Source of the DNA: Phoronis australis
Taxonomy: Eukaryota; Animalia; Phoronida
Direction: 5' to 3'
DNA: 64,000 bases
NCBI GenBank assembly: GCA_002633005.1
Contig: NMRA01000125.1
Coordinates: forward strand, 100,970 to 164,969
The position numbers and the translations under genes are program-made. This document shows positions 12,731 to 58,719 of this stretch, piece by piece. Each line of letters opens with the position of its first letter. The stretch's first letter is position 1. The notes under the pieces were generated by a model, which made no database searches, was not told the origin of the DNA, and was given only the letters and a program-made list of their open reading frames with translations.

Positions 12731-13377
12731 AAAATGAAACCAATTCCGATAATTTGTTGTGACATGTATGCAACCTTCTTTTTTGAAGAAGAACATTTGA
12801 TTGATGAATCTGTGAATAATGAAATTGGCGAAAAGCTACCGATGTATTGCGTGGTGCTTAAAGCCGACGCATCTTATTGATCCACAAATTTAGCAAAAAT
12901 AACGCTTGCATGGCAATATTTTAGCTCTGGTAACTTGCTTATTTTACTAAAGAATGAGTGTAGTTTTTCATGGCGGTAATTTTGTGTCAGATTTTATTTA
13001 GCCATTTTTTACCGTCGTTGGTGGAAAGCTGTGTATTTCTACAGCTTTGCACCAAAGCTAGTCAGATTGTACCCAGACCAACTCGGTTCTAATTGAAACG
13101 ATTTTTTGCTTACAAACATTTGAGAGTCAATTTCTATTTTGGTCTGCCTCTTGTGATGTGGATTGATAATTGAAAATGTCTTGGAGTACTTTGTAAAACA
13201 ATTTCAATTTATTGCAGGTGTTGGACGTCAGCATGTTGCAGAACTATATCTTGAAGTCATCGTCGGGGATTTTTTGCATGTTTTTGATTAAAAAGTCATC
13301 TACTAACTTGTGTGCTCTATATGGAAGAGTTTTTTTATAGTTGCTGTGTAATGTACTAGAACACTGATGTGGTCAAC

Positions 13378-14788: not shown

Positions 14789-14814
14789 GTTTGTAAAGCA
14801 TGAGTTTTTCTGTT

Positions 14815-15975: not shown

Positions 15976-16722
15976 CTTATTTGAGGATGGATAGTTTAAA
16001 TGCACTGTTAAAATTCCTAGTTTTCTAAAAGAGTTAACAACATTGGCGTCTTATCATTTCAAGTCATTTTTCATGTTTGAACTACTGTTCAAGAGTCACT
16101 AAGAAATGTTAATTTTGTGTAAAATGATAGAACTTAGTCATACCCTGCACTTTGTTCAAATACTTAGTGTTGCTAGATTGAAGAGAATGCTTTCAACATG
16201 GAGAATACTACTTTTAGGTAGTTGAGTATCATAAGGCAGACTGCTAGATTAGCTACTTAAAATAAACATTCACAAGGGCATCTCATATCTGTTGTCGTGT
16301 GAGTAAATAGATTGATAACAGTCTCATGCATAGTTATTAAATATTCATACCAGCCATGTGCGATCACCATGAATTAATAGAGCCAAACCACAAGTTAGTT
16401 AATGTACGTCGTGTAGGGAGTACTAGAGTGTGCGGACTGTTAGTGAAATCACGGGAACCATCTTGTATCATAAGACGACTCAGCTGCTTTCTCATTGGAG
16501 GTTGATGATGGGAAAGCAGATAAGACATCTGGCGAGTGTTTACGTGTGAAATTGTCAACAGCTTGTAACTTGGATTTTCTTTCTGATCTGATGTCACGTG
16601 ATTGTGTTATCAGCCGAGACAGTTTGGTTTTGTTTTGTTTTGTTTTGTATAGTTGCTAGTGCGGCTCCATTTGCTAATGCAAAAAAATAGAAAGTATTTA
16701 ATAATCATAATTTGTCTAAGTA

Positions 16723-16960
16723 CAGTAAAAATTCTTAAATTTGGGACAAGGAAAATTGCTAATTTTCAAAGGCTTGTAACGTTACCGTAAATACTCAAAA
16801 TTTTAACAACTGCAATTTTTGTTCTTATGCCAGCTTAGCCGTACACACTGTACTGACAACTTAGTATCAATTTCTAATAAGTTATTTTTGTCGAGACATT
16901 TGAAAACATCAAATTCTACTTGTATGCCATATTGTGTCACAAACTGAAGAATTTTTACTG
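16723..16960. mobile_element. ~240-bp MITE (CAGTAAAAATTCTT family, TA target)
   Basis: TA|CAGTAAAAATTCTTAAATTTGGGACA ... TGTCACAAACTGAAGAATTTTTACTG|TA. Other copies at 37651 and 58720, with partial copies near 31015 and 35477. Confidence 0.8.
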
Positions 16961-17000
16961 TATGTGGCGTTAGATGTCTTTGTCCTTGATTTTTCTTCAG

Positions 17001-17149
17001 AACCGGAGTCGGAGAAAAGACAACCAAATGATGACAACCTGCTAAATGATAATCAACTGCATTGTGATGATAGTCTTGAGTGTGAGACTCATGATTCCTT
17101 GATTCCAACGTCCTTTGAGTTAGAGAGTGTGTCTTCCACTCAAATAAAG
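17001..17149 (+). CDS. SIMC1: SIMC1-like protein, coding exon 2
   Basis: ttttcttcag|AA CCG ... AAG|gtatta; encodes (E)PESEKRQPNDD...STQIK; phase 1 in, phase 0 out. Confidence 0.65.
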
Positions 17150-17753
17150 GTATTACAGGCTAGATGTTATGGTAGGACGAGGACTGCATTTCCCAGCGTC
17201 AAGATTTCAACAAATGTGTTAGTGAAACTGAATAAGATATCACCGTAATGATGTTTGTCTCCAGCTGGAAGCAGTTACGAAGAATGACATAGTCACTTTC
17301 TGTCTTCGTTATTGCTAAAATTGACATTTTTTCATTTTCCAAGCACCTACATTATTACAGCCAGAGTTCTAATTTTTACACATATTTTTGTGATAGTTAG
17401 GTATATTTGTTGAGAAATTTCACAGAAAGAAAATTTGCTTTGGCGAAACATTGTGTCCTTGGCTAACCACCGTTTGTTGTCCTCTCTTCTGAAAACCAAC
17501 TTTAATTAAATGTTAGGTGAATACTGTGAAATAATGACTTAACCTGCTGGAGACGCAATTTCTTGGTGATGTTGTTAATCACATTTGTCTTTGAATTTAA
17601 ATTCCCTAGATGGGACTATGAGCTGGCCTTCTGTCAAAAATTCTATAAAGATTTTGATTTAGACTTCTTTCCATTTATGAAGTCAACTTTTTTATTCTGA
17701 TTAAGTGTGAATTATAAATGGACCTCGTATGAACTGATATTTTTTCTGCTTGA

Positions 17754-18203
17754 GACCATGCTAAGTGAATTAGCTTGTTGAGCATGGTCTATGTATTGAT
17801 TATGACCATGCTGAGTGCGTTAGCTTGTTGAGCATGGTCTGTGTATTGATTATGACCATGCTGAGTGCATTAGCTTGTTGAGCATGGTCTATGTATTGAT
17901 TATGACCATGCTGAGTGCATTAGCTTGTTGAGCATGGTCTATGTATTGATTATGACCATGCTGAGTGCGTTAGCTTGTTGAGCATGGTCTGTGTATTGAT
18001 TATGACCATGCTGAGTGCGTTAGCTTGTTGAGCATGGTCTGTGTATTGATTATGACCATGCTGAGTGCGTTAGCTTGTTGAGCATGGTCTATGTATTGAT
18101 TATGACCATGCTGAGTGCGTTAGCTTGTTGAGCATGGTCTATGTATTGATTATGACCATGCTGAGTGCATTAGCTTGTTGAGCATGGTCTATGAATTGAT
18201 AAT
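17754..18203. repeat. Nine near-identical 50-bp hairpin-containing tandem repeats (intronic)
   Basis: Unit GACCATGCT-GAGTGC(G/A)TTAGCTTGTTG-AGCATGGTC-T(A/G)TGTATTGATTAT, starting every 50 bp from 17754 to 18154. Confidence 0.95.
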
Positions 18204-18493
18204 GCCTTGTAAAGTCTTCCCAGGCCTATAAATTCTATTCTGAGTTAGGAGTATTGTATGGTGGGGGGGTTTCTTAAAAACTTAGTCTTCTGACAGAATG
18301 CAAGGTTTATATAGAATTGTTAATAAATACTTGAAACTTAGACAAGTTTTTTATTATCTATTCCTACTATTATGGAAAGCATTTTTATTGGTTATTTGCT
18401 GCTATGTTCCATTCCAAAAGTGAAGCGACAATCACTTTGTCAATTTTGTTGAATATGTCAGGAGCTCTATAGAATTATCTCTCATTTTTGCAG

Positions 18494-19251
18494 GAAACCA
18501 GTGATCATCTCAAGTCTACGGATATATTTTCTGCGCCTTTGTTTGTTACTGTACCGAACCTGTCATCCTTGGAAACCAAGACATTTTCTGCTGTGAAGCA
18601 AAGTCTAATTGAAGCTTGTAAAGAAGACGGCCATTTCACCAGTGAGTCATTGGAACTGATTCACGACTTGACAAACTCAAAATGCAAACCATCAGGACCT
18701 CAACTCACATTCCTTTATGATTGTTTGAGCAAAAGTGACAGGATGGATATCGTTAACAAAGCGTATGTGACATTAAGCCACGTGGCAAGAATGCACCCAG
18801 GTGAAGCATCGACGCCATGGGATATGGTGGAGAAAATGTTTTCTAATTTATTTTTACATAAATTGACAAGACTGAACTTAATGGGCCTGTCTTTACTGCT
18901 CGATCACGTGACCACCGTCCTACAGGTTGAAGTTGTGATAAACAAAGAGTCGAGAAGAAAGAGCCAGGCGTGGAAGTTACTGTCACCAGAATCAAACTTC
19001 AGACACGTCAGTAGACTTCTTGAGTGGTTGTTTCGACTTCTGCATGAAGATGATGAGACGAGTCTTTGCATTTCTGAAAGCACTGGGTTGCTAAGTTTGA
19101 ATTCATTGGAATCTCAGCGCGAACCTTTGCTCAGATCATGTGAAATTCGTCCACTGTTGCCGCTGCTAGCCAGGTTGTTGGAAGTTGCGGTGGTGGCAAG
19201 TTTGGAGCCTCTGCCTGTAGCATCCAGAATTGCTACGGAAATTGTTGACAG
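18494..19251 (+). CDS. SIMC1: SIMC1-like protein, coding exon 3 (Nse5-like helical domain)
   Basis: tttgcag|GAA...GAC AG|gtagta. The segments DIVNKAYVTLSHVARMHP...WDMV, LLLDHVTTVLQ and RHVSRLLEWL parallel human SIMC1 as recalled (DVLKEAYMLLMKIQQLHP..WDW, LFLRYVVQTLE, HNVRDVIKWL). Confidence 0.8.
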
Positions 19252-19659
19252 GTAGTATGGGGGCACCCACGGTTGCTGTAGTCATTTTTAGAGGCTCTGA
19301 AGTGAATTCCCTCGATAAGAAACATAATTAACGGAATCTGATTTCTTTCATGGAGTTAGAGATTTGGAACAACATTTACACATTCTAGTGGCAGGTACCA
19401 TAATTCTCATGGTTTTGGTTACCATAAATTAAGAATATGATCCTCATCAAATTCTACATATTCTGGCTATAGTTGTTTTGCAGCAGACGTGTTGAAGGAT
19501 TTGTGTATTCTATCTGAAGGTGGCGCTGTTATTTTCAGGTTCTGAGACTCAATAAACATGCAGCAATTACGGAAACAACATAATTCAGTGGATGGCTGTT
19601 CCCAAAGCACTTTTACATATGTAATTTCCATTAATTTTGTTCAAAAATTTTGATTTCAG

Positions 19660-19904
19660 ATTTTTTTCCAATGGCATGACATTCTGCCGGCGAAAACGTC
19701 TGCTCTCCTTGCTCACATCTCCACTGCTCAAGTTCAAGGTCACCGAACACTTTCTTTGTCCTGCAACTACCAGCTGCCAATCATTGCCTTCCTTTCAGAG
19801 CTTGGTGGATGCCATGAGCTCTTGCTATGACCTGATTACCCAAGCTGATGACTACTTGTTATTGGTCAGCACCTGTGTGACATCATACATACAAACTGTA
19901 CAAG
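19660..19904 (+). CDS. SIMC1: SIMC1-like protein, coding exon 4
   Basis: gatttcag|A TTT ... CAA G|gtactg; phase 2 in, phase 1 out; encodes RRKRLLSLLTSPLLKFKV...YLLLVSTCVTSYIQ. Confidence 0.75.
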
Positions 19905-20049
19905 GTACTGTGTTGATAAGTAGAGGAAGCCCGGTGGTCTCATAAGTATAACATACTCTACAAAAACAGTAATTTTGGAGTTTTAGGCATATCTTGCGCT
20001 CTTTTTGGAGTTCCGTGAAACTGAAAAATGGGTTATACAGGAAGCAGCC

Positions 20050-21150
20050 ATTTTTATGTGTCCACATATTTATATGTCGGTGCATATTGTCGTTATCTCT
20101 GTTTGGGGGTCCGGTGTCTGTAGCTATATCTACTAAACCCCTTGCAGGACCTGAAATTTGCCAGGTGTCTGCCTATGACGACGAGTTTTGGACTGAACCG
20201 AATACCGCTGTGCCCCCATGATTAATTCATGAAATTCAGCAAATAGGTTTTTAATAAGGAGGCAAGGATGCCATTCCATTTTCAGACGGATTCTATGGAT
20301 TTCACGCCACCTTGTTGTTATTTTTGCGTCTGTTTTCTGACATCCGCCTCTTTATTTGCCGTACACTCATAGGGTCATTATGAAAATTTACTTATGTGTT
20401 CCTGATGAGAAGGTCACGACTGAAGTTGACTTTTGGACGAGTCTGATTACCGTGTTGTCCCCTTGTGGCAATTTTGTTTTTTTTTGTGTCTGCAGCCCAA
20501 TCTCCTTATCTCTTTGAAGAAGCTTTGTGAATTTCGAAAGATGTTTTGAACTGATCCAAATACCACTGTGCCCCCTAGTGGTGAAATGTTTTTTGTTTAC
20601 CTCTATCTTCGGAATTCTTTTATGAAATTCGGCAAATAGGTTTCTATCAAGGAGACAACAATGTCGTTCCGTTTTCGGACAGATTTGATGTTTTCTGCAC
20701 CACCTGGTGGCTTCTGTTCCTGATCCGAAGACCCATACTGATGTTGATTTTCAGAGGTTTTCGAATATTCTGGTGGCCCCAAGGGGCATTTTCGTTTTTT
20801 TGCGTCTACGGCTGTATCTCCTCAAACCTTTGAAGGATCTTTTTGAAAATTGGCAGATGGGCTTCTATAGATATGGCAACAGATGACGACGAGTTTCAGA
20901 CCAATTGGACTATAGCTGTGCCCCCTAGTGTCAATTGGTTTTACTTTTGCCTCTAAATCTTAGGAGTTTTTTGGCTTATTGTCATGAAATTTGGCAAATA
21001 GTTTGCATTACAGAGACGTCACCACCTTCTCAATTCGGACAGATTTGATGCATTCTGTGCTGTCTAATGGTAATTTTTGTGATCCGTACAAGTACATTAT
21101 TTGTGGTGCTGGTCGTGGGCGCATTCCAATGCTCCGCGTTGCTCTTATTT
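20050..21150 (-). mobile_element. Helentron/HINE-like element with internal tandem units, same family as 14815-15975
   Basis: Repeated blocks CTGTGCCCCCTAGTG and ATGAAATTCGGCAAATAGGTTT at ~20210, ~20570 and ~20920; end GCTCCGCGTTGCTCTTATTT. Confidence 0.5.
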
Positions 21151-22199
21151 TTTATGTTCATCATATGTCCCGAGTAATTTATAAATGATACATGCCTCAT
21201 AAGCTCGTTACCAAAGATGAAAAGGAGACCGAGTTAGGCGATATAAGGTCATTTATTATGACTAATGCAATTACAAGTTATAGTGAATAACCATAAGTGA
21301 AATAAAAAATGATAATCTCTGGTAAGATGGGCAATAAAAAAGCGCCACAAGAGATGTTGTAAGACAGCTCATGCCCTTCCTTTGCACACACCGACTATAG
21401 GGGGTTGGGGTGAAATATATTTAATTTGTTGGTGCCGACTGTGTGGCAAATTGTCAAGCTTATCAGCTGTGCTTTTTCTTAAAAACATGTTCTCCAACTG
21501 TGCAACAAAAACCCCATCAAACATATATGAAATTGTCAGGAATAACACATACATGTGAAAAGGAAAAATGGTAAATTGTTGGATGTCGTTAACAGTGCTC
21601 CAGACATGATTATGTCACATGGCTTGGCCCACCTGATTGACATAAACGTAGGGCATGTAGAAACTGGTAAAACACTTTCAAATCTGGTAAAAAATATTTA
21701 TTAAAGCCACTACATTTTGAGTCTAATGGGTGTGGCCCTTTACCAGGTTTAAAGACAAATACCTTGAAACCAGGGGATCTAAAGAAACGTCCGTTATTTT
21801 GTTTTCCAACACCCACAAAAACAGTGATTTTAATAAAAACGTGGGCCACGTGAGCCATTACCTCCAACTATTCCTATTTCGTATCCTCTTTTCATTTTCT
21901 GTCATCCTCCCTTTGTTTTTCTATTTTTTATACATTCATTGCCCAGACAATAACACAAAGCCAGTCTCAGGTTGGGCGCCTCAGATCCAGCTTTAACAAA
22001 AGTATATAATATTAAACAATAAATATGTGTAAAGGAAATGAAATGTAACTAAACAGGGACACGGGGACGGGGAAGGACTTTCACACGCCATTCATACACA
22101 CACTCAGGCTTTGCTGATACGGTGTTATGATGAAATTATGCGCTATGAAAAGAAAAGAAAAAATAATATATAATAATATAGGTACATAATACACGCATG

Positions 22200-22360
22200 T
22201 ATTCATACATATACATACATACACACATACATACAATACATACATACATACATACATGCACATATACATACACACATACATACATACACACATACATACA
22301 CACATACATAAATACATACATACATACATATATACATACCTATATACATAAATACATACG
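22200..22360. repeat. (ACAT/AC)n microsatellite
   Basis: Directly visible. Confidence 0.95.
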
Positions 22361-22989
22361 TTTAGACAATATAGAAATTTCATTAAAGACATGACTAGAC
22401 TTTTTGTTAGCGAGCTTGATACTGATACGTAATTTCGGAAATCTCCTTTCTTCTGGTGCAGATATGAAGTAAAAATTCGAGAGACATGACAAACAAATAA
22501 AAACAATAGCTATATTTCGTGACTACATGTCACATTATCAGGCAATTAGTGGAATGAACATATGCGTAGCAAAATAAACATTGAAATACACGTGGCAGCG
22601 AGAAGAGGGGCATACAAGCAGAGTGTGAATGCAACACACGGTAAGAAGCCCGCTACCCTATAGAAACATGGGGTACACACCTGTGAGCTGCTCATTCAAC
22701 ACAGGTTTTTCCTGACTGATCACTTTGTACACCAAGATGGACGGAAAATAATTAGGCAAGAAATAGTAGACAATACCATCATTCGCTATTTTGAAAATGA
22801 CACATTTTGGCTAAAGATTTTGGAATTGCTGTTAACAGCTGTAGTGATTGCAATATAGAAATAAACAATGACAATTTAAGTTTAACACATAACATTGTGA
22901 TGTCTAAATGACAATATGAAAATAATGATAACAGTGAATAGAATACTAATTAAAAACATGCGTGCAGAACTCTCCATTTATCCACATTT

Positions 22990-23280
22990 GTGTCCGAGGT
23001 ATCTGTAAAAATTGTGTTAACTATATAAACATTTGTAACTTCAGTTTAAAATAGTCGAAAATGAGAAGCTTTTCTGCATTTGTTTGATAAATGAAGTAAA
23101 ATGCAAGTGTATTAATGGTATCACAAATTAATTTGTGATTTGGATTAGAGTTTTGAACAAAATCTATAATGTCCCAAATCGTAAACATGTACTGGGCATT
23201 TAATTTTGAACATGATTGCATAAAAAAGCCTTTTGCCCACCACTGAAGAGCGCCACCAGTTAGGCTCAAAAGCCAATAAC
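22990..23280 (-). mobile_element. Possible decayed LINE (L1/Tx1-like) ORF2 3' fragment
   Basis: Minus frame ...LQWW...IIDF...INTLAFYFIYQT...YFKLKL resembles the C-terminus of L1/Tx1 ORF2. Weak recall-based similarity only. Confidence 0.3.
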
Positions 23281-23401
23281 TTTAATAAATAATTGTTTAA
23301 GTGTTTTACCAGTTTCTACTTAGTCTCATTTTATTCGTTCTCGACATGTCATTTTTAACTAATAGGTGTGACTGGGTACTACTCTCATTTTTTTGTTTCA
23401 G

Positions 23402-23667
23402 GGCAATGCCATGTTCCCATGAACAAGAGAAAGCTCCCATCCTGCAAACCATGTCTGTCTGACATGGACAATGAGGCCCTCATTAACCTATGTCATTTCT
23501 TAGAAGATAATTTTGAGTCATCTCAGCTGGAGACCTGTCTTCTTCTCTTAAAATGTTTAACTGAGGCCACTCATACTGGAGGAATTACAGAAGAGTGTTT
23601 AGCCACCAAAGCTGTAGAGACTACCGAGGAATGTCAAGCTGGGACCAGTCGCCAGCCTTTTGCCTAA
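23402..23667 (+). CDS. SIMC1: SIMC1-like protein, last coding exon
   Basis: ttttgtttcag|GG CAA ... TAA. SQLETCLLLLKCL parallels human PQLQDKVHLLKLL as recalled. The spliced CDS totals 2829 nt = 942 aa plus stop. Confidence 0.75.
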
Positions 23668-32900: not shown

Positions 32901-33089
32901 GAGGATTTGTAGCGGCATTCTGTGCCTTTGAATAATGCGAAAATGGTAGCCCTGGAAGTGTGGAAAACTGAAAAAATTCACTGTGACGATAACAGAAATT
33001 CCTTCTTACCTTCTGCACAAAATGGAGCTAATACAAAAACACTGAAAGAATTCGCATCATACTTTTTACATTAGGCAAAGTCGACTTAC

Positions 33090-33260
33090 CATTGCACCAA
33101 GACAGTACTACTATCTAATGGCTGATAGACTTCCGTTGGGACTGAATGTAGAGGGACCTGCACCAACAGGGACTGTCCATCCTCTGTGTCCTCCATCAAC
33201 AGCACCGTCAGGGTGGAGTCATTATAGAAACTGAAGTCCAATATCTTGCACTGGCCACAC
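33090..33260 (-). CDS. ANAPC4: ANAPC4 coding exon (third from the 3' end)
   Basis: ttacag|G CGQCKILDFSFYNDSTLTVLLMEDTEDGQSLLVQVPL...TG|gtaagt. Compare human CLDAQFYDDETVTVVL...LLVQLPL as recalled. The phase-2 junction joins 29979 in frame. Confidence 0.9.
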
Positions 33261-33762
33261 CTGTAATGACCAAGATACGTGCAGCAACATTTATGCTCCA
33301 TAGAATTTGGGTTTAATTCAACTGAAATTGCCAGAAAGTTGCCAAAAATGTGCTGAAAGATACTGTAACCACAAAATGAGAAAATTAGACTTCGAAATAA
33401 AATACCACGGCATTACTAGAAAAGGAAGAAATGTGAGATTACTAAAGTCCTGTCCACACACACATGTACTATTAATTAGTATGACGGGATGTTAGCAACT
33501 GAACGTTTGTAGTTACGATTATTTAGTTGTTATTGTTCATTTATTCTTATGATAATGTATTTGTTGTGTTTCAGTGCGCCTTTGTTACGTGGGCATGAGG
33601 GCACTTTGCTAGCGACAGGCTACAGAGGGTGCGTTTCCTTCTTTCTTTGGCAACTATGGATTGAGCGGATGTAATTTGGAACTGTACTGTAATGTACATG
33701 TATGTGTAAGGTGAAATGCACATTTTGGAGTTCTTTGGAGATTTGATTTGTTGCACTAGGGN

Positions 33763-37880: not shown

Positions 37881-40800
37881 TGATTCCTAGATCCTCAGAG
37901 ATGTCTGGTCTCCTCTGATGGGATGCTGTTAACTACAAGTAGTGGTGGGAACTCTGGTCAAGTGGGATCTCATTTGTCTGGTTACATTGTCAACACTCAC
38001 AAATAATTATAATAATTATAATAATTATAGAGTAAAAATGGACTTAACATATTAGATTGCTTGGCACTCAAATCATACCTTATTGCTTTAACTGATAAAA
38101 ATATAATGTATAGACCGTTTTTAATGTCGGCAATAAGAACCTGCCAACAGCTGAAGAGCAGCATTTTTTGAGAAGGAACAACCACCGCCTTGGCACACTG
38201 TGACCCCAATAGTACCAGAATAGAGCCGTCCAATCCTGCACGTGCCAGAGTTACGACACCGTCACTAATAAACACTCCAGAAAGGTACAAAAATATTTAA
38301 TCAGCCATCCAAACCTGAAGTCCCCACTCACAGCCGTCAGTGCAAATAGCTGGCCGGTTAACAACAAAAGCTCTTCAAGAAATCACTACTGGCCAAAGGT
38401 CTCCCACCCACTCTGCACATGTGTCAAATGTCAACAAACTTCATAGTTTTCATCCCTAAAAGAAACTTGTTATCCTAAAAGAGGCTAGCATCTAAACAAG
38501 GCCTTTAAGTTTCAAAACTTCTGCATTGTACTTTGAAACAGTGGCAGTTGCTTCTGATCATGTTCTAATCAGGTCCATTCAAGCTAATGAGAGTTCTACC
38601 AAATTAATAATGTTACTAAAAGCTGATGCATAATCACGACTTTCAAAAGCGTCAAATTTGACGAATGCTCAGTTACTAGGAGTTTGAGACTTAATTCGAT
38701 GCAGTTTTGACAATTTCCTTTCTTTCCATCAACGTACAACAAACTACGTTTCACTATTCAAAAGATCTGCAAAATAGGACCACATTATAAATAAATAGGA
38801 CCATATTATAAATAAATAGGACCATATTATAAATAAATCTAGTCATGCACACCAGTGCTTCCAAATTTTTAACAATATTGAATAAACTTTTCTTTGTTGA
38901 TAAAAAGTAAAATTCATGATCACTCAAATTTACCAACTAATTTATAGTGCACTAAAAGAAAATAAAGGTAAAAATTTTAGATTAAGAAAAATCACATCAC
39001 GCTGAAAAATATCATATAGGACTGAGAGTAAAGCCATGTTCAGACCAACTAAACTCCAACATAACTCTTCAATCTATTGTTGTAAGTGTTATGTAATCCT
39101 TACCCTTCATACCTGCAGTTAAAACTATTGTAATCCTACTATGCTGGTAATCACCAGCTGTTAGTATTATCACTTTCCAATTTCCCCCAGTTAGGACCTG
39201 GTAGTCATGGTTTCCAACAAGACTTGACAGCACAAGCACCTCATTTTTAAACTGCCCTGGTTTTGCACGAGAGGCTATCAAAAATAGGACTTTTATACTT
39301 TTCATGCAAAAAATTTTTATAAAACAAAAATGAAACAATTTAGAAAATTGTAACAGCATTTTCGAGATTTCATCTTCAAAATTTACATCAAAGGAAATTT
39401 GGTCATGTTATTGCTATGGATAAATGTACTTTTCCTTTTTGCTCATTTTTACTAAGAAGACCCAATCAATGGCAGATTAGTAAAGAGTCAAAAACTAAAT
39501 TCTACAGGCTTTCTTCTTTCAGAAAATATATACTTTTACTGAGTCAAATTTTATAGTTTTGTAGCAAAATAAACAGACTTGCCAATAATGTTCTACATAA
39601 TCTTAACCTAGAAAATGTCCACCCAAGATAGCCAAGGGCTTGTAATTTCAGCAAACGGAACATATAAAAATGAATATAAATTATGACTTCTTTGCCCTTA
39701 AAAAAACAGCGTGTTGGTAACTTAGAGGCGGACTGTCACTACTGCTTTTAATAAAAGCAATTTGAATAATAAAGTCAAAATTCTGAGGTCTATTCAAGAC
39801 CATTAATCCAATAAAAATGCAGGAACAGTTACAGTTACAGTTACAAACGTTCACAAGGCATATCTAACATCAGTACACACCGCTAGATTATCTCCTTTAA
39901 AAAGGGAATTGCTTTCATTGACAAGTGAATACCTTGCCCTCTGAACTGGCACACATGGTAACACTACACCTGCAATCTCCGCTACAAATGAGTAACAAAT
40001 AAGTGTTTACTGTTCCCAAACAAAGGTGATAAAAAGAGCACCATCCTAACAAGAGGAATTCTTGTGAATAGGTCTACATGAACAGTGCTACACTAGTGAC
40101 ACAGTGCAGCAGTCACTGAATAAGAATGGAAAATACCCTTGCAGAAAAAAAACACCCTGATTTTGCTAAATGCCAACAAATTTGTTCTTGCTTGCAGACT
40201 GAAGTGGGTTGACTAAATAACATACAGAATTACAAATCTTTTACTGACACACAGTACCTCATGTAGTTATTTAATCAATTACTATTAGTTTCAATTCAGA
40301 TTTGATGTCTAATTATTTCCAAAGGTTTTCGCTCAGTGACACACATGAGAATAACCTAGTACGCCAAAATACATAATTGAAAGTTTTAAAAAAGATTCAA
40401 GTTGATAAACTTTCCTGCTCGCCCCACTGTGCAGAAATGGACCAGTCTGAATGATCATTTCAGCCAATGACAGTTAATGAGGCTTTCATGAAAAAGTAAC
40501 AGGGTGTATGCATATAAGTAGCACCAACTAGGAACAATTCCCCAATATTTTCCAAACACCTTAACTAGGGGAGAGTCCATGCTTAGCAGAAACACAACTT
40601 TCACTTGTTGATGGATAGTTGGCAGATTGCTCAAATGTCAAGGAAACTTTAACATAAGAGGTTGCTTGGCATCAAACTTGGAAATACAGGAAAATATCAC
40701 CACATCAACCAGCAACCGAAGGTTTGAGGTAAGCCTGCTGTCAAGTTTATCTTCAAAAATTTCAAAAGCAAGAATTACTCCCCAAACACTCTAAGACTTA

Positions 40801-43800: not shown

Positions 43801-46800
43801 AAACTCAAATGGGATAGGATCCTAAAAATGCAAACAATTCCTAATATCATGCGACTAATAGCTTGTTTTAAGCAAACTTTAGACACAGAATTTGACAGAA
43901 TTTTGTATCTGTGCACCTAACAGCAAATCTCCAAACTTAGCTTTTTCAAGCTGGTATCCTAGGTTTTGAATTGATTTCAAAACCTCAAAATTTTTGGCGG
44001 TCGAAATTGCTGACCTGAAATTTTTTCAGTGTCAAAGGTTGAAAATTAAAAAAAATGTTCTGCATAGATAACAGAATGTTATTACATGTAAAAGAAATAG
44101 GTACATGGCTCGTACGTGATGAAGTAAAAGGTCCTGTTTACAATACAAGTGATTTTCTGCCTAAGTTCCCAGTTACCTAAACTCACAGTTGCTTACAAAC
44201 CTCCTCATAAGGTAGTAAATTCTCTTCCAGGCCAGTGTTGGCATGTTTGTTTAGATACCAACCTCTTCTAAAGGTGAGTGCAGGTAAGTTTGTTTTGTAT
44301 ACCAACTTCTTTACAACTTTCTTATTTCACCAGTCCTAATGCGTGCGAGTAGAGATCATAGGAATTCTGATTCTTTGCTTTTCGCCGTCAAATACAGCAT
44401 TATTGTCCTCAGCCAGTGGGCCAAAGAATTTGTCAATGCCGAGGGCAATGGACAGGTAAAAAACTTGAGCAGCGCCAGTCTTTGATCACAAGACTTTGTT
44501 TACATCAAACGACCAGTGAATGTGCCGAGTGTTCAAATGTACCTCCCAGTTGACAAGCGGGGCACAAGGTAATCACCAATGGGAAACTTTGACAGAGGTA
44601 ACAAGCAGGCCCTGCCACTCAACTGTAAACAAAACTCAAACAGCCTTTTGTCTGGGATGCACTCAAGGTTTTTAAAATTTCAAACACATTAACTTGTCAT
44701 ATCAAATTCCTGAATAACAGTTATATGATGCAAACCTACTAATTTACAACCTAGGTTGTAAATGAAAAAAAACATGCGTCAACAACTCAAAAACTGTGAC
44801 TAAGCATGGCGGTTGTTGAATGTTTTCGGACAAGTGAGTGATACAACAATGATCAAAATTATAGAGTAGATACAAAAGATCTTTCAAGATAAATCTCAGC
44901 CAGTAAGTCATGACATGCTGTTGAAAGTGTCAGAAGGCAGTCTGTTCTACGGCCAATGAAATGGGTCTGACAGGGAAATGTGGCTATACAGAGAACATCT
45001 GATCTACCTTTAAAATGTGAGTACTGGACCATCGAACATTTACCAATACTTGTTGAGTTGGGTGAGAGTCTATTTGCCTAATGGTTGTGTTCAGAGAGCC
45101 TGTTGATAAACTAGGTCAGACATACCATGTGGTCAGATGAGGAAGTGACACTGATGTACATTTTAAAATTTTGCTGCTCAACTAAAACGCCTAGACAAAC
45201 TACACCATGCAGATTCGAAAATTGACATCATTGAAGAATGAGTGTTAATGTAGGCACGATAGACCCCTGTTCGCTAATCTGTATTCAGTATTGTGAGTGA
45301 AGTTTTACTTGTCTATGCCCTGCCTGTCCAAAAAGCTATAGGATAATATCAAGCCATAGAAAGATAAGTAGTTATGAATGAATGAGTCTGACAGGAATCT
45401 AGAGCTAATAACAAGCTCCATCATGTCGATACCAAGCCTGGTGGACAAAAACTCAAAAGCATCACACTTTACAAGGAGAAGGGTCAAGATTCTCGTACAA
45501 AGGCAATATGCCATACTTTAATTGGGTCGGTGTACCCTGCTTACTGGCCTGTCATTCAACTAATTACAAAACCTCGCTGTTTTAATTGAACGGCAAAATT
45601 CGTGCCAAAAAATAATGCAAACGTGTACTTCACACTTGTGTCTTTTTCATTCTTTATATTATTGAGTGTTATAAAACATAAAATAGATAGTTGTTGTGAA
45701 CAGAAACCAATTACCCTGTCCAGGTAAAGCGTAGCCAAGCTTAACAATTGTCGGTCTCTGATGACGACACTCTGATGCTACATGGATGGTGGTGCACAGC
45801 TAATCTTGCGCTGAAATTTACCAGCAATGCATGCCACGTCAAATGTTAATGCAGTTTTGCTATCTAAGACCATCATGTTTTTTCAATTGCATTTTATGAG
45901 CTTAATTCGTATGGAAAACACATTGTGGATTTGATAACTGTCATAGGGGTTGCTATAACAATCAGTGAAAATCACTTAATGCACTACAGCTTCGTTCTGG
46001 TTGTGTCCTTATGACTTTAAAAAGCAAGGGTTTTTGTAACATTATTAAGTACGTAACTTGTTGGCTTAACAAGTGCTGCAGTTCAACATTTAATTTATTT
46101 GACTGTAAAAAATACCATACAGCAACATAAAATACCATGACAGGATACCTGCTGTGTAGGTTCCTAACAAGTACTAGAACAATCAGTAGTTAGTACGCTC
46201 ATCACCAACCTTTACACTAGTTACGGTTAACATTTCCATCTCATTCATTACAAACTGTTGGCCATTCCAAATAAAATTTTATTTCTCAAGGGTCTGAAAC
46301 TGGCTCACCTGGGGTCTGCTTCACGTAAAATGACTGAAAACTGAGCATTCAATTCATAAATTTGGTCTTCTACTTCCAATTCATAATTTATGAATAAAGG
46401 TTTAGTCAAGTGATTATGTGCGCATCACAGTCCGAAATAATTCACACAAGTTATCTCTGCAACTTGCTCTTACATAAATATTCTCAGAGACTTTGTACTT
46501 TTGCTCAAGTGAGATTTAATTATTTTTCTGAAATAGTTGTGTGGAGCACAAATCCAAATTTCTGACCAAGGTCTGTAGTCCCTTTTCGTGAAATAGACCC
46601 AGTGCCAGAAACGCTGCAACCTATGTCTAGTATTCAAGCAAATGTCAAGCAGGAGACAGTACTTTTTGATTGATTCACATGACCGAGCACTGATGAACGG
46701 AGCTTTGTTCAGTGGACCTCATTGAAAAGAAAACTGTACAAGAAGGATTTGACCACCCAGTAGGTATATGTGTATTGCCTATCAAATCTTTTAGTCCTTT

Positions 46801-49800: not shown

Positions 49801-52800
49801 CAGTGATTGTAACATTTTTCAGTCATCGACGGTTGTAGCTGACTTGACACCTATGATGGCCAAATCCTTATTTGCATGTGATTTGTGGCTTTTGAAAAAG
49901 GTCGCCATCGGCTAAAATTGATGCGGTGGCCATTTTTTCTTTAAGTAGTGAGGCGTAGACCAATACCAATTATGTTTTTGTTGGCCTTATGTAACATTTC
50001 CAAATCATGTTTTGCCTTTGGTCAAATGCAAGCACACACTTCTCCTTTATATTCGACAAATGTCCAGAGGAGGAAAGGCGACAAATGTCCAGAGGAGGAA
50101 AGGCGTGTGAAAACCACCACAACTTACATAAGACACAATATATCCCTTATATATACCTTTTAGCCTACTTGCTGACAAGAGTGATTATTATGTTTGGTGG
50201 TAGTGTTTTCCACTGTTCAACTCCTCTTAAGGAAAATCTGTTGTTTGTGGTAAGAGGAAACAATAAAATGCACCTTGAAAGAAACTTTCATGGCAAGTAT
50301 CTTTGACTACAAAAGTTCAGATATGCTGAACTGCACCATAAACAAGCGAGAGTCCACCCTGAAAATTAATGGTCATAAAATATTCTATGCACAGCAGATG
50401 CAGAGAGTTCATAGTGAAGAATTATTACAATGAGTCCGCTTCTAAACAACAGTTAATAGCAGCCAAGCACAGATCAATCATTATTTTACGACTTAGGATT
50501 AAAAATGATGGTGGTATCGCACGCCTTGTGTCGGCTGTGGTTCAGATGAGCCATAATGCTGTGAGTGACAGTTATAGTAAGAGGATTAATATTGTACTTT
50601 GATACCTTAAACAGAAACGCAACAACAGATTAATAAAAAATTTAGCACTCATTAATTAAACCGCGTTTCGCGCCTATGGGTTTTCAACAGGGACGGAGGG
50701 CAAAAATGGGAACCTTAAAAAAGTACCCGTGTCGATGCAAGCAAAAGTCGAACACAAGATTGTGATCTTTGCAGTTGCAACACCCTCCCTGGTTTTTCTT
50801 ACATCGGCAGGGCATTTGAATGCTGTCTGATAATGCAAACTACAGCAGTTATCAATATCTAAACTGCGATAAACTCAGCCCTGCTTATCATTTGGTTACT
50901 GATTATCACTTGGCTAGCACACGCATGCTGCCGCTGATGATAAGTACAGCAATATATCAAGAGACATCTGCAAAATAAACCAGTAGGGACAGGCTGTCTT
51001 ATCACTAGCAATGGTACGATACTCGTAGAGGGAGTACCCGTCAGTGGTAAGCAACGCATAATTAAAGGCCGTTAATAATCGTCCGGCAGGTGTTTCTTTT
51101 GTCTTAAGGCAGTGAGCGTAACTCTGGCTACCATGTCATAAGAAAGTGTGGCTGCGGTAGTTTTATTATATTAATGGTGTGACTGTTCTCAGTGACAGAG
51201 CTTCAAGTCAACCAACAGGTTTGTAACCTATGGCTTTAAGGTTATATGGAACCCTTGAAAAATGTAAAAATTTGGTTAACTTTGGAACATCATATCTCCA
51301 AACTGGCTGACTGGACTCAAATGAAACTTTCAGATATTATATGCCTTATGCACTAGCTAATGTTGTCGTGAGTTGTTGCTTAAATGTTCCACCTTTACGT
51401 GAGGGACATAAAATTATCACAAATTTTTCACAGCTGCAAGTGACTATTGCCAGTTAAACCTTGCCAGGAAAGGTAAATTGCTCATTCAAGAGATTTCTAT
51501 AATTTTAAACACCAAAAAAATCACTTTTCCAAATAATGTAAACTGTGCTGTCATTTGCTTCAATACCAACATCAGATGCCAGTTTCACAGAAAATGTTTC
51601 ACACCATTAAAAATCAAAGAATGATAAGTTGAAATATACAAATGGAATTTTATTTCAAAAACCCCAGTGCCAGGTACAAATGCAAGGCATGGCAAGTTTT
51701 GAAAGTACAGCAAGTGTAAGATGGATGAGGTGCTTACGACACAAATAAAACTGAACATGCAAGGTGTCTTCTAAATTACGCTACTTAAGACCTCCAAAGT
51801 TCCCCATTTTTGTGACCTAACTTTTCACAAACTCGGGCAACTTGACCTGTGAACATCCCGCACACTCTCACACGTACAAAAGCTTTTCTTTACGGCCCAG
51901 AATAGGCTTAATAATGCGCCTAATGGATTTCAAAAGCATGATTTTAAAGTCATTCTTTTTGGCAAAGTTTTGTCGGCTGACAGTGCCATTGTTGGGTCTA
52001 GCGTTAATGTTTTTCTTGTTTGAAAGCAAGTACGACTGGAGCGTGCATGTAGTCAACATAGTGTCTCGTCATTGGTCACTAAGAGCCAATAGGCAACATC
52101 TCTCACCTTGTGGTGATCGTGGTAGCTTGCTAGACGGGTGCACAAGCAGTCTGTTCAATAGTTAGACATTGGTGATTAGGATATAATAAGCAATAACTTC
52201 TGCAAGGCTCAAGTGTAGTGTATAAGACACCAGTGTATGGACTGTCTATTTATTGTGGTTATTAGTTGGTCATAGTCAACAGGCAACAGACTCTTACCTA
52301 GTGTTGAAAGCGTGCAGGGCACAATAGTAGACACAAGGAGCGTTTTGCGCATCTATTTACACATTGGTCATAGGTCACTTGGACGCAATAAGCAATGTCC
52401 ATCAGTGTGCGTTACACAGTCTTCATGGTCACCAGTGACCAGTGACCAATAAGGGACAGTTCCTATCAGGCAGTGACTACATGCAGTGTACAGGACAGTA
52501 GAGTGGACAGGACTAGTGTTTGTGTGGTGAATTACCTGGCTTGTCACAGATGACTAGCAAGTAGTAGATAGTATCCCCTAACTAACCATGTGTGCAAGAG
52601 AGCCAGCCATACGGCACATTCTTCACAGTACTTAAGCAAAATAGGAGAGACAAGTTGGTAAGTTGTAGGAACTGTGCTTAAAATTATTAATGATTATGGA
52701 ATTTTGTTGTTGCTCTACGACAAAATTTTGACTTCAGTAACTGTCACTTTCAAGTTTTTGTTCAGAAGCTCCATACAATTTTCTGTCCAACAAATACTCA

Positions 52801-53441
52801 ACTTATATCTAGCTCCTGAAACTTATACAGTGTCATGAGCATGACCACACTCTATTTTACTTATTATATTTCAGTGTGTGACAACTTAAAATAACTTTAG
52901 ATTAGCAAGACTCAGAAAACATAATAGACAATATACACAACTGGTGTTTCGTAATAGTGGCTGGCTGGCGTGGCTGGCGGGAAGGCAACCTGTGCAAGAT
53001 GGTCCCACTTAAAAGGATCTTGTGTATTAGGCCAGATTTATCAGTCATGTTTCAGTGCCCAAGGGCAGAGTTGGTAGAGTTTATTACTTACCATTCATCA
53101 TATCTGATCAGTGAAGCATGATGCCAATGGATGATCCATCACTGTGACAATTATCTGTTATGCAATCAAGGCAAACATGACTGTGAGCCAACAGTTTTTG
53201 AATGAACAGGCATCATTGAGACCCATGGAGATGAGATCTATAGTAAATCTTCAATTTCATGACAGGCTGGAGAGCACACCATTGGCTTTCAAAAGGAAAC
53301 AAATGTCCTACAGATCACCCTGTGACAGGTTAAAGCAAAGGGTGGACTCAATGATTGACAGGGGTGGGAGGGAGAAAGCCTTGGATTGATAGGGTGGCAA
53401 ACATTAGTGCATTTACTGTAGAATTACGTAATGTTATGACT

Positions 53442-53602
53442 TCCAATTGGCTATAAAAGCCTCTCCCTTCAGAGCAGAGTGTACAGATTGGCTGTAAGTT
53501 TCACTCAGTTAAGACTGTCTTGAATATATTCTAACGGATTACTGCAAATTTTGACTGTCACCGGCAAGATTTTTTCTGTGAAATTATCGTCTGGCTTAAA
53601 AG
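53442..53602 (+). promoter_or_regulatory. Putative promoter (CCAAT plus TATA) and 5'-UTR exon of the dae4-like gene
   Basis: CCAATTGG CTATAAAAG at 53443-53459 and a donor AAG|GTAAAG at 53602, upstream of the acceptor ctatttcag|54455. Confidence 0.45.
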
Positions 53603-54463
53603 GTAAAGTCAATCTACATATATAAATTTTGGATTTTATTCTGATACTTTATAAATCAATATTTCAAAATAAAACTAGATACAACTTTGGTGGTCATAAA
53701 ACCAGTCAGTGCATATTCTTTTTGTGTATTTAATTTTCTGTTTGCTTTGTGTTTTCTAAATTCTTTTTAGAACTTTAAATTGAAATAAAACTAGAATCGT
53801 TAAAATGTTTTTGATTTCCCAAACACTAGCTTGACTTTTCTGAAATTGGTAGAATGGTCTGAAAAGGAATTATTTTTTTCTTCTTTTCAGCTGCAGTGCA
53901 TGCTCATTTTTGTTGCAAAAATACAAATTTCAACATCAAAATTCAAATAAAATGTTTTAAGTCATGCACAAATCGGAAATGGAAACGAAAATAAATTATA
54001 TTTATTCCTATCTATCAGTTAAGAAATGTAAGTTTCTCTCATTTGGGTTGATTTTATTACTTAAGAACTGGCAGGAGTTTGTACACGAAAAACAATTTGT
54101 GGGCTATTGTTAAAAATTGTTTACTGTTGTGCACTGACTGTACATAAAGGTTCATATGCCAGCAACATATACCTAAGGCTTTTCACCAAACAGGCAGTGT
54201 CCACTGAACTGTGACAAAGTCATGGCTGCCCCCATTGTGTCTGTGTTGGTCCTCACCTTGATAGTACTTGGAACAATGAGCCCAGAACCACTCAAGTAAA
54301 ACATCCAATCAACACAAACCTTATGAGTGAACAATAGTCCAGCAACTCTATTGGCTACCCCTGTGACCATAGCTGGACATGAGGGTGAATGTAAACCAAC
54401 TGACCTCAACTTCTTGTAGGGCAGGTGGTCTAAACTTATTTTCCTCTATTTCAGAGTGGAGCC

Positions 54464-54556
54464 ATGACTTCAGGGCATTGGCCAGGCAACATATGCCTTC
54501 CCAAGCTAATTGTGACTGTCATCGCGGTGCTCTGCATGTGTGTTACCGATGCAAAG
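54464..54556 (+). CDS. dae4-like (Tae4-family) protein, coding exon 1: signal peptide
   Basis: Acceptor at 54454, Kozak-like GCCATG, MTSGHWPGNICLPKLIVTVIAVLCMCVTDAK, then a strong phase-0 donor AAG|GTGAGT. Hydrophobic core with a T-D-A cleavage-like site. Confidence 0.8.
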
Positions 54557-55577
54557 GTGAGTTAAAATACTTGCACTTTTATTTCATACTTCCTGACCCA
54601 CAACGTTCCAGCTGAACGTATTTCTAAAACATCTCAACAAATATGTTTACTTATTCAATTAAAAAAATTGGATATTTTTTAATAAGAAAATGTCACAATG
54701 AATTTTTAAATACCTAACCATGCTGAAATTGGTGATAAACAAATCAATAAATAATTTTGATCAGCCAATTTCAGAGACTTTTCAGTAAAATTTTGATGTC
54801 TGAAACAAGTGTTCAGAGTAAAAGTTTTGGAATTTTTACAGAAAATACTGATCATTAAGACCGAACAAGTAATCTAGCACAGTGTCAATTACCAAACCTG
54901 TTCAACTGTCGTCAGAAGCTAACACCAGGATAAAGGTGTTGCTAATAATTAAAAATTGCGTGTTAAGTGTTCCTACCACAATTGATCAGTTAGCTGTCTA
55001 ATCACCTATTCAACAAAGTTGTTTTGACACAAGGCAGATGTAACCTATCTCAGTTTGGCTTAGATTGGTCTCATCAAGCCAGTCATTAGTGACAGCTCAG
55101 GTGTTATATATACATACAGGTAACGACCTTGGCTTGATCAGTCAATTATTTAAATGAAATGCCGGATACCCGAGACAATAGACTAGTGATAGTACAGCAA
55201 GTGGTACTCATTATAAGTACAGGTGGGATAATTGGGCAACACTTTGCATTAATTAATCAACACCTCTACTGACTAGGTGAGGAGATAGTCTTGAGCAATC
55301 ATTTTCCAACCCTGACCACAAATTATGTCAGTAGAATGCAACATTCTCATGGTAAGAAGGCGAACCTGTTGTCTGACGAGCGGTCGCATGATTTTTTGAG
55401 ATTGCAGCCCACTCTCATCTGCTTTTTGATTGAACAGTCTGTAAACACTGTAACACTGTATCAATCATATGACACAATAAATAGCAATGACCTTAACCAT
55501 ATTAGCTTTTATGACAGAAGGTAGACGAATAGCTTAACCTTAATTACATGTTAATAAAATCATGTTTGCAATTTCAG

Positions 55578-56171
55578 ATTCCTCTGCCAAATTTCGACAA
55601 ACTGAAGTCTGTGTACCCTGGCTATAAGCACCATGGTGGACACTACTCCGACAAAGATGTCGTCACTATGATTGGTGGACGAAAAATCCTAAAACTCACA
55701 GAGACCACTGGTCTGCGCCTGTCATTTGCCCTAAACAAAATCGGACATGGGCATGAGATTAACAGCTACCCAACAGAGCTGACGAACTTGACTACATATT
55801 GGTCAACCATGGGCGCTGACCGGAAAATATACTTAACACATGCATTAGCATTTGGCCCGTACCTCGCTGTTAAATATGGCAACCCAGAGCTGGTTCGACC
55901 TGGAATATGGAACCGGGAAAGGGTCATGGACCAATTTTTAGGTCGGCAGGGACTGATCCGCATTGTGACATATGATAGACGGAAGAAAGCGCAAGCATTT
56001 GTAGCATTGTGGGATTGCAATAATTTCTACAAGACTCGCAACTTTAACAAGGTGCTCCATCTATTGTCAATAGAATTCTGGGAAATGAAAGGACTCGGCT
56101 GTAAGTTCGAGAGAAACAGGAAACACAAGGGCCAAGGTCGGCCTAAACACTATCCCAAGTGGCTGCGGTAG
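55578..56171 (+). CDS. dae4-like protein, coding exon 2: Tae4 (type VI secretion amidase effector, NlpC/P60 fold) homologue, apparently catalytically inactive
   Basis: atttcag|ATT (phase 0). Collinear motifs versus Salmonella Tae4 as recalled: LPNF/RPSF, MIGG/IIGG, TTGLRLSFALN/ACPIRMSYVLN, GADRKIYL/GADNKFYI, YLAVKYGNPE/YLTHTMGKPD, FLGRQGLI/FIGKKGII, AQAFVALWD/ARGHVTLWN, IEFWEM/GTLWIL. Confidence 0.85.
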   Translation: MPLPNFDKLKSVYPGYKHHGGHYSDKDVVTMIGGRKILKLTETTGLRLSFALNKIGHGHEINSYPTELTNLTTYWSTMGADRKIYLTHALAFGPYLAVKYGNPELVRPGIWNRERVMDQFLGRQGLIRIVTYDRRKKAQAFVALWDCNNFYKTRNFNKVLHLLSIEFWEMKGLGCKFERNRKHKGQGRPKHYPKWLR

Positions 56172-56768
56172 AACCACGTGAAAACATCTGCAATATCCCA
56201 CAAAGTCGACGCTTAAAATCTGTCTACAATTTGTATATATTTTGCAATATCATTGACATCAAACCTTCTTATGGTTAAGAAATGTTACTCAAGTAACACT
56301 TTAGTCCTTCTGGACACAATAAGTACGGGTGTCGAATCTTAGATGTCAGTTGAAATTAAATCCAAAAAACCTGGACAATTTTAAGTTTTCTGTATTACGT
56401 AGTTGCTGCTGTAAGCTATGCAAAGTGCTTCAGGCATAGTTCGGTAATGTTGTTTTTTTAATTATCGTGCTAACACCATGTCTCAACAAACTGGCGATAT
56501 CTATTCCGAACTCGATTCCGTGGTTCGAAATCACCCAACCTGATGTATCTACTAAGATTACCATATACCATGCTTTGACTTGCATGAGGTGCCATCTGGG
56601 TGTTTGAGGTGAGAGAGTGACACACAATAGCTGTGAAGGACAGGGTCTAACAGCTTATTTGTAATCTGCCAAACACAAATCAAAATGCCAGTAGGAAATC
56701 ACACTTAACAGTTTGGAGATGACATACATGTGCTGGTTTCCATGGACTCCCTCACTGCCAAGTAATCA

Positions 56769-57240
56769 GGGTTATGTTAGACTCTAGAAAAATATCCATA
56801 TTTGGCTAACTTGGGAACATCTTATTTCAGAAATGACTGATGGCATTCAAATGAAACTTTCAGATACTCTGCTTTATGCAACATTCTCTTCAAAATTCTT
56901 TAAAGAATTGATTTTTAAGTGCTCCATGTTGGCATAAGGGGCTATTAAGAATTGTGAATTTCATAATTTTTATGACAGAACTTGATGCATAAAACAAATA
57001 CGAAAGGATAATTTAGGGAACTAGCTGTGTTTTTGACATTTCATCTTCAACCTCATGCTACTGACACCACTTTGCCATGGATGTGTCTTTCTTTTTGTCG
57101 CTAAAATTCAATAAAGATGACCCAATTAAGGGCACGATGGTACAAAATCAAAACTCAAATTCTACAGGCTTCCTTCTTTCAGCTTAGTTTCACACATTCT
57201 GAGATAAGACAGACTTATGGATAAGGTCCCGCATAACTTT
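56769..57240. mobile_element. Kolobok-like non-autonomous DNA transposon
   Basis: Ends GGTTATG ... CATAACT. The left part recurs at ~51240 (after TTAA) and inverted at ~30730-30850 (before TTAA). The right part recurs at ~39360-39606 (ending TTAA). Confidence 0.55.
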
Positions 57241-58719
57241 ATGTTCCCAACAAAATGCAGAGTAAATCCATATGGCTGACATGTTGAACAAAGTTGACAT
57301 TTTTCTCACACCACTTTTATGGTAGAAGTTTATGATGCTGGGTCATAAACGTGAGAAAATCTTGAGGAAAACTATAACAAGATTCAGAAACAGAAAACCA
57401 AGCTGTTACTTGACAACAGAGTGCCTGTGAGAGTATGATTTGTGTGTAAAAATGTTTTGGACAATCTTATTTAATTTTTATTATGTACTGTTATATTTCA
57501 TATTTATACATGTGTAGTGATTGATTTCTAATTAAAAATATTTATTTCAAACAGTCCAGTTTGTTTTCTAGTGCATTTCAATTCCACAAAGTCTTCAGAA
57601 ATGAGGGCGGGAAGATGTTGAAACTCATATTCAGATCAATCCTCTAACTTACACGCACCTCATAACTGAATTTTTACCTTATAACATTTAAACATTACAG
57701 ACTCCAATCTGTGTTACAAGTTACACAATATGATCTACAGCTTGTTACCAAACTGAAACAAATAAGGCCATCCTTCAGCACTTTTACTTACAAAAAAATC
57801 ATTGCTGAAATTTGCCATCAAAATTTTCAAATGCTTTTTTACATTTTATTTCAATAGCGTACATAAATGCAAATGGAGATATTACTGCCCAGAAATTGAA
57901 TTAACCTTATATCGGGGCAACAAATTCTTATACCTTGCTATCAATGATCCAAGTCAGGTGTTGTTTTAGACAACTACACAGTGCAACGCAAATACAATAA
58001 AAATGTTTGTTTTGCTGCCAAAGTTGACAAAAATAAAATTCCACTCCTTTGCCACAGTGCCTAAGATAAAAAATACAGCAATACAGCATAGATTCACAGG
58101 TCACAGACCTGTGGAAGGTTACAGCTCTTAGAAGATAAGAATGGAGTAATTCAAGCACAGCTGTCTTAGTTTAAATTAAAATTCTGAGCAGAAAACAAAC
58201 AAAGTGAGAATATCTTAATCACACTGCATCAAAAGATTACACGACCATCTGTCTATCATTTTCTTTCAGGAGGCAATATGTCTTGCCTAAACATTTCTGA
58301 ATGATTGAAGGCAACCATGCACTGTTGTCTTTAGCATAGCTGCCATGTAAGCAAAACAAAACTCGGAAGGAAGCTTATCGTGTGATGTGTTAGCCACGCA
58401 TGGCAATATCTTTAAGTCATTTTGCTTGCGGGATTCTCGCCTGTACGGAATGCGCACAAGATCTTTGTCTAAGAATTAAACAGAATAAAGAAAACTAACA
58501 TCCAAATCCGCGCGAGGTACTTTCAACATGATTACTTTAAACAGGTCCCTTTAGGTATGAAAAATGCTAAACAAATATTTGCTACTGACAAGACTGCGAA
58601 CTTGAAAGGGTCATGGATTAACCTCAAAGGATCAACCTACTTTCAAGACAACCACAGCAAACACTCTCTGCCCAGCTGATGACCAAGAACAAAAATCATC
58701 TGCCTGTAAGAAGATTATG

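Follow-up and report, generated by a model that had tools for sequence, protein, structure and literature searches.

A 64,000-nucleotide stretch of Phoronis australis genomic DNA (hereafter the window) contains a genuine animal gene, spliced and transcribed, that is related to the bacterial Tae4 amidase effectors and that carries other residues at all three Tae4 catalytic positions. It belongs to a multi-phylum clade of animal Tae4 homologues in which the nucleophilic cysteine is missing throughout. We tentatively read its product as a secreted, cationic pseudo-amidase, likely to bind peptidoglycan without cutting it as part of antibacterial defence, a reading that we hold at somewhat less than an even chance.

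Gene structure, transcription and genomic setting

As the first-pass annotation of this DNA had proposed, a 31-codon exon, which begins with an ATG at 54464 and ends in AAG before a GTGAGT donor, is spliced in phase 0 to an exon of 197 codons plus a stop, which opens with ATT after an atttcag acceptor. The junction 54556^55578, with GT..AG ends, is present in 65 RNA reads from three runs (8 in X6, 19 in X7 and 38 in X8) and in one X5 contig. These counts come from the mapping of four same-species runs against positions 50000-58500 of the window, which drew on about 18-19% of every raw run. First mates lie on the minus strand, which in the usual stranded library indicates RNA from the plus strand. 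RNA depth is about 20-65 over the coding exon and continues unbroken to about 57460-57480. The acceptor at 54455 is also fed by three more GT..AG joints seen in RNA reads, and two loose-end sequences at the same exon map further upstream, where each runs into a GT donor (Table 1). These five upstream non-coding exons, together with the long 3' UTR and the loss of catalytic residues described below, are additions to what had first been annotated. An N-terminal extension of the protein through the five upstream exons was ruled out: in the stretch examined there is an in-frame stop and then no ATG. A tblastn search of the 64-kb window found no second copy of the gene.

Table 1. Features of the Tae4-like gene, in window positions
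Feature	Positions	Strand	Remarks
Alternative non-coding 5' exon A, 3' part	40698..40728	+	Donor GTAAGC after 40728; in-frame stop upstream; 13 X8 loose-end reads at the 54455 exon and an X5 contig
Alternative non-coding 5' exon B, 3' part	44991..45016	+	15 X8 loose-end reads, 1 mismatch; donor GTGAGT
Alternative non-coding 5' exon C, start approximate	51050..51218	+	Joint 51218^54455: 6 X6 and 4 X7 reads
Alternative non-coding 5' exon D, start approximate	52480..52657	+	Joint 52657^54455: 4 X8 reads
Alternative non-coding 5' exon E, start approximate	53500..53602	+	Joint 53602^54455: 3 X6 reads
First coding exon	54455..54556	+	9-nt leader, ATG at 54464, 31 codons forming a predicted signal peptide
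Phase-0 intron, GT..AG	54557..55577	+	1021 nt; 65 junction reads; same position inferred in relatives
Last exon, coding part	55578..56171	+	Predicted Tae4-fold domain (residues ~1-175) and 22-residue cationic tail
Thr codon at the Tae4 Cys44 position	55707..55709	+	Exon residue 44, spliced-protein residue 75
Phe codon at the Tae4 His126 position	55998..56000	+	Exon residue 141, spliced-protein residue 172
3' UTR, end approximate	56172..57480	+	~1.3 kb; continuous stranded depth; dispersed repeat near 56770-56880

A contaminating bacterial sequence, a chimeric contig or a gene acquired by recent transfer might be suspected from the uninterrupted domain exon and from its GC content of 46%, slightly above that of the surroundings. 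In RNA from other samples, however, the domain is joined across spliceosomal introns to exons that lie as far as 14 kb upstream, and the protein nests among animal homologues in the tree described below, where a bacterial grouping is rejected. The probability of an explanation of this kind is practically negligible, and contamination or a chimeric contig in particular was ruled out by the junction reads. The claim of a real genomic gene thus stands, on the junction reads and on the animal clade alike.

The host-gene neighbourhood that had been annotated around the gene is represented by an exon at 18473-19252 that matches human SIMC1 (E = 1.7e-5) and a weak APC4-WD40-like exon at 33089-33412 on the minus strand (Pfam E = 1.1e-5, below the cut-off). 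Positions 13360-23664 on the plus strand are likely to hold one multi-exon SIMC1-like host gene, and a 186-bp tandem repeat is present in its long ORF at 14017-14537. A dispersed repeat of 97 nt is present in two copies, 77% identical, at 51240-51336 and at 56770-56866 (the latter in the 3' UTR), and many reads from elsewhere overlap both. The assembly has a gap (a run of N) at about 12200-12600, far from the Tae4-like gene.

Kinship with Tae4, phylogeny and origin

The Tae4-like motifs first noticed in the second exon are matched by both profile and structure comparisons. Taken alone, the window protein scores no match to the Pfam Tae4 family (PF14113) and reaches E = 0.04 against Salmonella Tae4 chains. 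A full HMMER search with the exon-2 protein returned 44 proteins at E ≤ 0.001 (P0040, an 800-aa repetitive protein, was set aside as a spurious match), and a 39-sequence family profile matches the Salmonella Tae4 chains at E = 9e-13. The Pfam test that had been proposed for the gene therefore has a divided outcome, negative for the protein alone and positive for 36 of the 39 alignment members at E ≤ 0.01, with a Dreissena homologue scoring 34.7 bits against a cut-off of 27. Since profile and fold both match Tae4, we attribute the miss by the single protein to its divergence. Named relatives, taken from 21 proteins looked up and one further search, include Dreissena (two genes), Potamilus, Sinanodonta, Pinctada, Gigantopelta and Sepia, molluscs among them, together with Owenia, Tubulanus and Lingula; identity to them is 34-40% where given. 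Matches were present in 6 of 401 genomes.

An AlphaFold model of the exon-2 protein (pLDDT 86.8) gave the outcome that the first-pass annotation had anticipated. The best Foldseek match has E = 3.4e-8, all 11 matches at E ≤ 0.001 are Tae4/Ssp1 structures, and structure comparison with Tae4 yields Z = 18.2 with an rmsd of 2.0 over 148 residues. Among the other structures listed, Tae3 scores highest (Z = 6.9). The Atlas feature score to Tae4 clusters is 0.96. On this model, the exon-2 protein is predicted to have a Tae4-type NlpC/P60 fold.

To place the protein we used a quick tree of 107 rows and a careful tree of 50 rows, the latter comprising 21 of the 33 rows of the window protein's clade, 9 of the 20 other animal-like rows and 20 bacterial-type rows (four added records included). 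In the 50-row tree, the window protein lies inside the 21-row clade at 100/99. Named members of this clade are molluscs, an annelid, a nemertean and a brachiopod, a phylum range that rests on the 9 of 33 clade rows that carry an organism name; many bacterial-type rows carry none. A group typified by P0038 is sister to the clade (89/82), and a 91/86 branch sets the animal-like rows apart from the rest of this unrooted tree, which resolves no donor. The window protein itself is a long branch (1.23), with at most 39% identity in this tree, and forcing it among bacteria was modestly rejected (AU p = 0.033, in a test run after the tree had been seen). The phylogeny that had been suggested was obtained with bacterial-type rows; the Nematostella protein nvDae4 was not identified among the homologue matches, and the census below is therefore short of all animal Dae4s.

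Several other sequences were noted in passing. The P0038-type group (P0038, P0041, P0070 and P0075-P0084, mostly from ENA) is a second animal-like group with many similar copies, in which the Cys column is occupied by Asp and the His column by Ser or Val, so that 12 of 12 are without the Cys-His dyad. In two Logan proteins, P0044 and P0066, a Hint module (Pfam E = 3e-44) is fused with a Tae4-like domain that has the Cys and not the His, which suggests an autoprocessed secreted protein. L039 (OR845946.1), a 1.4-kb GenBank record labelled Escherichia phage, encodes a Tae4 in agreement with the Salmonella chain over the stretches compared, and is likely to be bacterial DNA filed as phage.

The Tae4 family is common to animals and bacteria, and we infer that the gene has an ancient bacterial origin and that its nucleophile was lost before the divergence of molluscs, annelids, nemerteans and brachiopods. 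The best bacterial match, P0047, is the C-terminal domain of a protein that we take, from its motifs, to be of Rhs type. P0135, P0137, P0139 and P0140 are Tae4s of bacterial type that keep the dyad and have, by inspection, N-termini like signal peptides; they are possibly exported without a type VI system. Together, the Rhs-type match and these N-termini suggest that the donor need not have been type VI cargo; in view of the N-termini, the intron may also have entered a gene whose product was already secreted, an alternative to the addition of a eukaryotic secretion exon that had first been proposed. In relatives, introns were placed from protein ends, by setting spliced proteins against apparent genomic ORFs (for example P0071 against P0072, 87% identical). 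This analysis points to one intron at the position of the window gene's own and to another just after the domain, which the window gene does not have. The earlier description of the bacterial domain as a single exon is thus accurate for Phoronis; the relatives appear to differ from it in this second intron.

Active-site loss and possible functions of the protein

Salmonella Tae4, in the available text of PMC3695027, uses Cys44 and His126 and also needs Asp137, and alanine at any one of these positions abolishes its toxicity. In the window protein the three positions are occupied by Thr44, Phe141 and Lys152 (exon numbering), in an alignment for which the numbering of the reference record reproduces the Tae4 catalytic residues and the register agrees across alignments. 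To see how widely these residues have been replaced, we took a pool of 155 sequences, reduced it to 139 with at least 120 domain residues and then, by removing duplicates at 90% identity, to 115; leaving out 8 fragments or rows without one of both columns gave a final census of 107. In the window protein's clade the Cys column holds Cys in 0 of 33 rows (Ser in 19, Ala in 8, Thr in 2 and other residues in 4) and the His column holds His in 26 of 33. Both residues are present in 52 of 54 bacterial-type rows. Two further animal-like groups are without the full dyad, which is found in 0 of 12 and 0 of 8 rows.

Around the old nucleophile, the clade has kept Arg47 and Asn53 in all 33 rows and Ser49 in 97%. 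The Cys135/Cys139 pair of bacterial Tae4 is missing from the window protein, and Tae4 Val80 and Asn81, which contact the immunity protein, align with variable columns. The clade also has features of its own that are missing from bacterial rows: a YPGY..GG motif, His59, a Trp-Asp-Cys motif and a Cys after the last strand, the last of these likely to be part of a new disulfide. A Cys147-Cys175 disulfide is predicted, and in the model of the exon-2 protein an insert at residues 61-80 is of low confidence (pLDDT 66-81).

The first exon resembles a signal peptide, with a hydropathy peak of 3.15 over 11 residues followed, by inspection, by a small-residue cleavage-like site after the hydrophobic core, and the protein is likely to be secreted. 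Among the variants listed, all seven coding variants are third-position and synonymous, as compared with a synonymous expectation of 22.6% under uniform mutation (P ~3e-5, transition bias ignored), which suggests that the frame is conserved; for X5, 14 of the 16 differences counted in the coding piece are listed.

These data bear directly on whether the protein still works as an enzyme. An active cysteine amidase like nvDae4 would fit the shared fold, the predicted secretion signal and the precedent of known active Dae enzymes, but Cys, His and Asp are all absent from the catalytic positions, and the codons at these positions are invariant among the variants listed from four runs. Such activity is very unlikely, and the first-pass description of the gene as dae4-like finds no support in the sense tested for nvDae4, that of an enzyme. 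The clade could instead have stayed enzymatic through a Ser/Thr-His hydrolase or some other catalytic arrangement, given that Ser and His occur together in 14 of 33 members and that His is so often kept. The remaining 19 are without this pair, however, and members with Ala and His (8) or Ser and Arg (5) argue against a conserved serine enzyme, as does the Thr and Phe of the gene studied here; we consider altered catalysis quite improbable.

A different possibility is that antibacterial action comes mainly from charge, with the cationic surface and tail doing the work of an antimicrobial peptide borne by a carrier domain, whether or not peptidoglycan is bound as well. The exon-2 protein has a pI of 10.1, with 34 Lys and Arg against 15 Asp and Glu, and 11 of the 22 residues of its C-terminal tail are Lys, Arg or His. 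Basic tails are common in the clade: 14 of 17 chosen full-length members have at least 7 such residues among their final 25. They are nevertheless missing in the other 3, and the pI of the core ranges from 6.2 to 9.7 across the 11 clade members computed, leaving this explanation improbable.

We judge it unlikely, with rather more to be said in its favour, that the dead Tae4 scaffold was co-opted to a non-immune extracellular task (in matrix or mucus, as a secretion component or as a binder of host proteins) and lost its contact with peptidoglycan. Such a role would account for the clade's own motifs and for its retention across phyla without catalysis, and the five alternative first exons, with expression in 3 of 3 raw-read runs (which carry no tissue or treatment labels), suggest broad regulation. 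The surroundings of the old active site, on the other hand, are conserved, and a Cys-less anemone homologue is immune-induced, as recorded in the available text of PMC8713801.

The reading that we prefer, a secreted pseudo-amidase that binds peptidoglycan, draws together the replaced triad, the fixed neighbours of the old site, the apparently conserved frame, the basic tail and the precedents of RipD and Nematostella. A secreted, cationic protein with a Tae4 fold and without the catalytic residues would be unable to cleave peptidoglycan; its groove for the stem peptide, if retained, could hold the cell wall uncut, the basic tail and surface would add affinity for anionic bacterial surfaces, and bacteria might in this way be marked or clumped. 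Against this, the His-to-Phe change and the low-confidence insert could alter the groove, the columns of Tae4 Val80 and Asn81 are variable, and the long branch of the window protein means that it may have drifted from the role of its family. A broader history, in which a bacterial wall-cutting toxin reached an early animal, lost its activity before the phyla diverged and now forms a secreted peptidoglycan-recognition family independent of the PGRPs, is possible but doubtful.

Precedents and comparison with known systems

The original dae paper, by Chou et al. in 2015, reportedly described dae4 copies in lophotrochozoans, and the loss of the Cys in these phyla may already be visible in its extended data. 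Dae genes, and Dae4 among them, are in any case already known from the accessible portions of PMC8713801 and bioRxiv 10.1101/2020.04.10.036376. The literature searched, which covered few subscription papers, yielded no study of a Cys-less lophotrochozoan Dae4 clade in the text available, and within it only the Nematostella and tick papers were directly relevant to lophotrochozoan or Cys-less Dae4. Dae proteins are presented as bacterial toxins that retain their killing activity in animals. Here, the fold, expression and what looks like a conserved frame persist in a multi-phylum clade that has lost the nucleophile, and its member in the window has lost the whole triad. If peptidoglycan binding proves true, the clade would add a new class of pattern-recognition protein to those of invertebrates, with representatives in bivalves and cephalopods; if there is no binding, it would be a clear-cut example of a toxin scaffold that was transferred and put to another purpose. 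Under either outcome, the label 'T6SS amidase effector' misleads.

The closest known counterparts are in Nematostella, where nvDae4 and a paralogue are animal Tae4 homologues like the window gene. According to the available sections of PMC8713801, nvDae4 has a secretion signal, keeps its catalytic cysteine (C63), cleaves peptidoglycan and kills Bacillus; in keeping its Cys it is unlike the window protein. The paralogue is Cys-less, as here, and is induced by cGAMP alongside the active protein and together with immune genes; the same paper credits the 2015 dae paper for this Cys-less case. By eye, the Nematostella probe sequences in its supplement have bacterial-type motifs, unlike those of the window protein's clade. 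Tick Dae2 is likewise a domesticated tae product with a predicted signal peptide, and differs in being of the Tae2 family and catalytically active (bioRxiv 10.1101/2020.04.10.036376, from the portion available). For a fold of this kind kept without its triad, the nearest parallel is mycobacterial RipD, an NlpC/P60 protein that has lost the catalytic triad and for which peptidoglycan binding is demonstrated in the text available from PMC12067865. RipD is bacterial and not of Tae4 type, and the binding shown there is a proposed one for the window protein.

With bacterial Tae4/Ssp1 (PF14113; structures 4HFL, 4HFF, 4J30, 6IJF and 4BI3), the window protein shares its predicted fold (Z 17-18, rmsd 2.0-2.4) and collinear motifs at 17-24% identity. 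The window gene is unlike its bacterial counterparts in having an intron and a signal exon, and its product differs in a new Cys pair, in a basic tail and in being without Cys-His-Asp. Nor does the setting of the gene look like that of type VI delivery with an adjacent Tai4 immunity gene, since it contains an intron and is flanked by transcribed UTR and introns. In summary, the window protein belongs to the Tae4 fold family and is without the catalytic residues of Tae4 and of the tested Dae2 and nvDae4, and its gene is encoded and expressed by a eukaryotic genome, as dae genes are.
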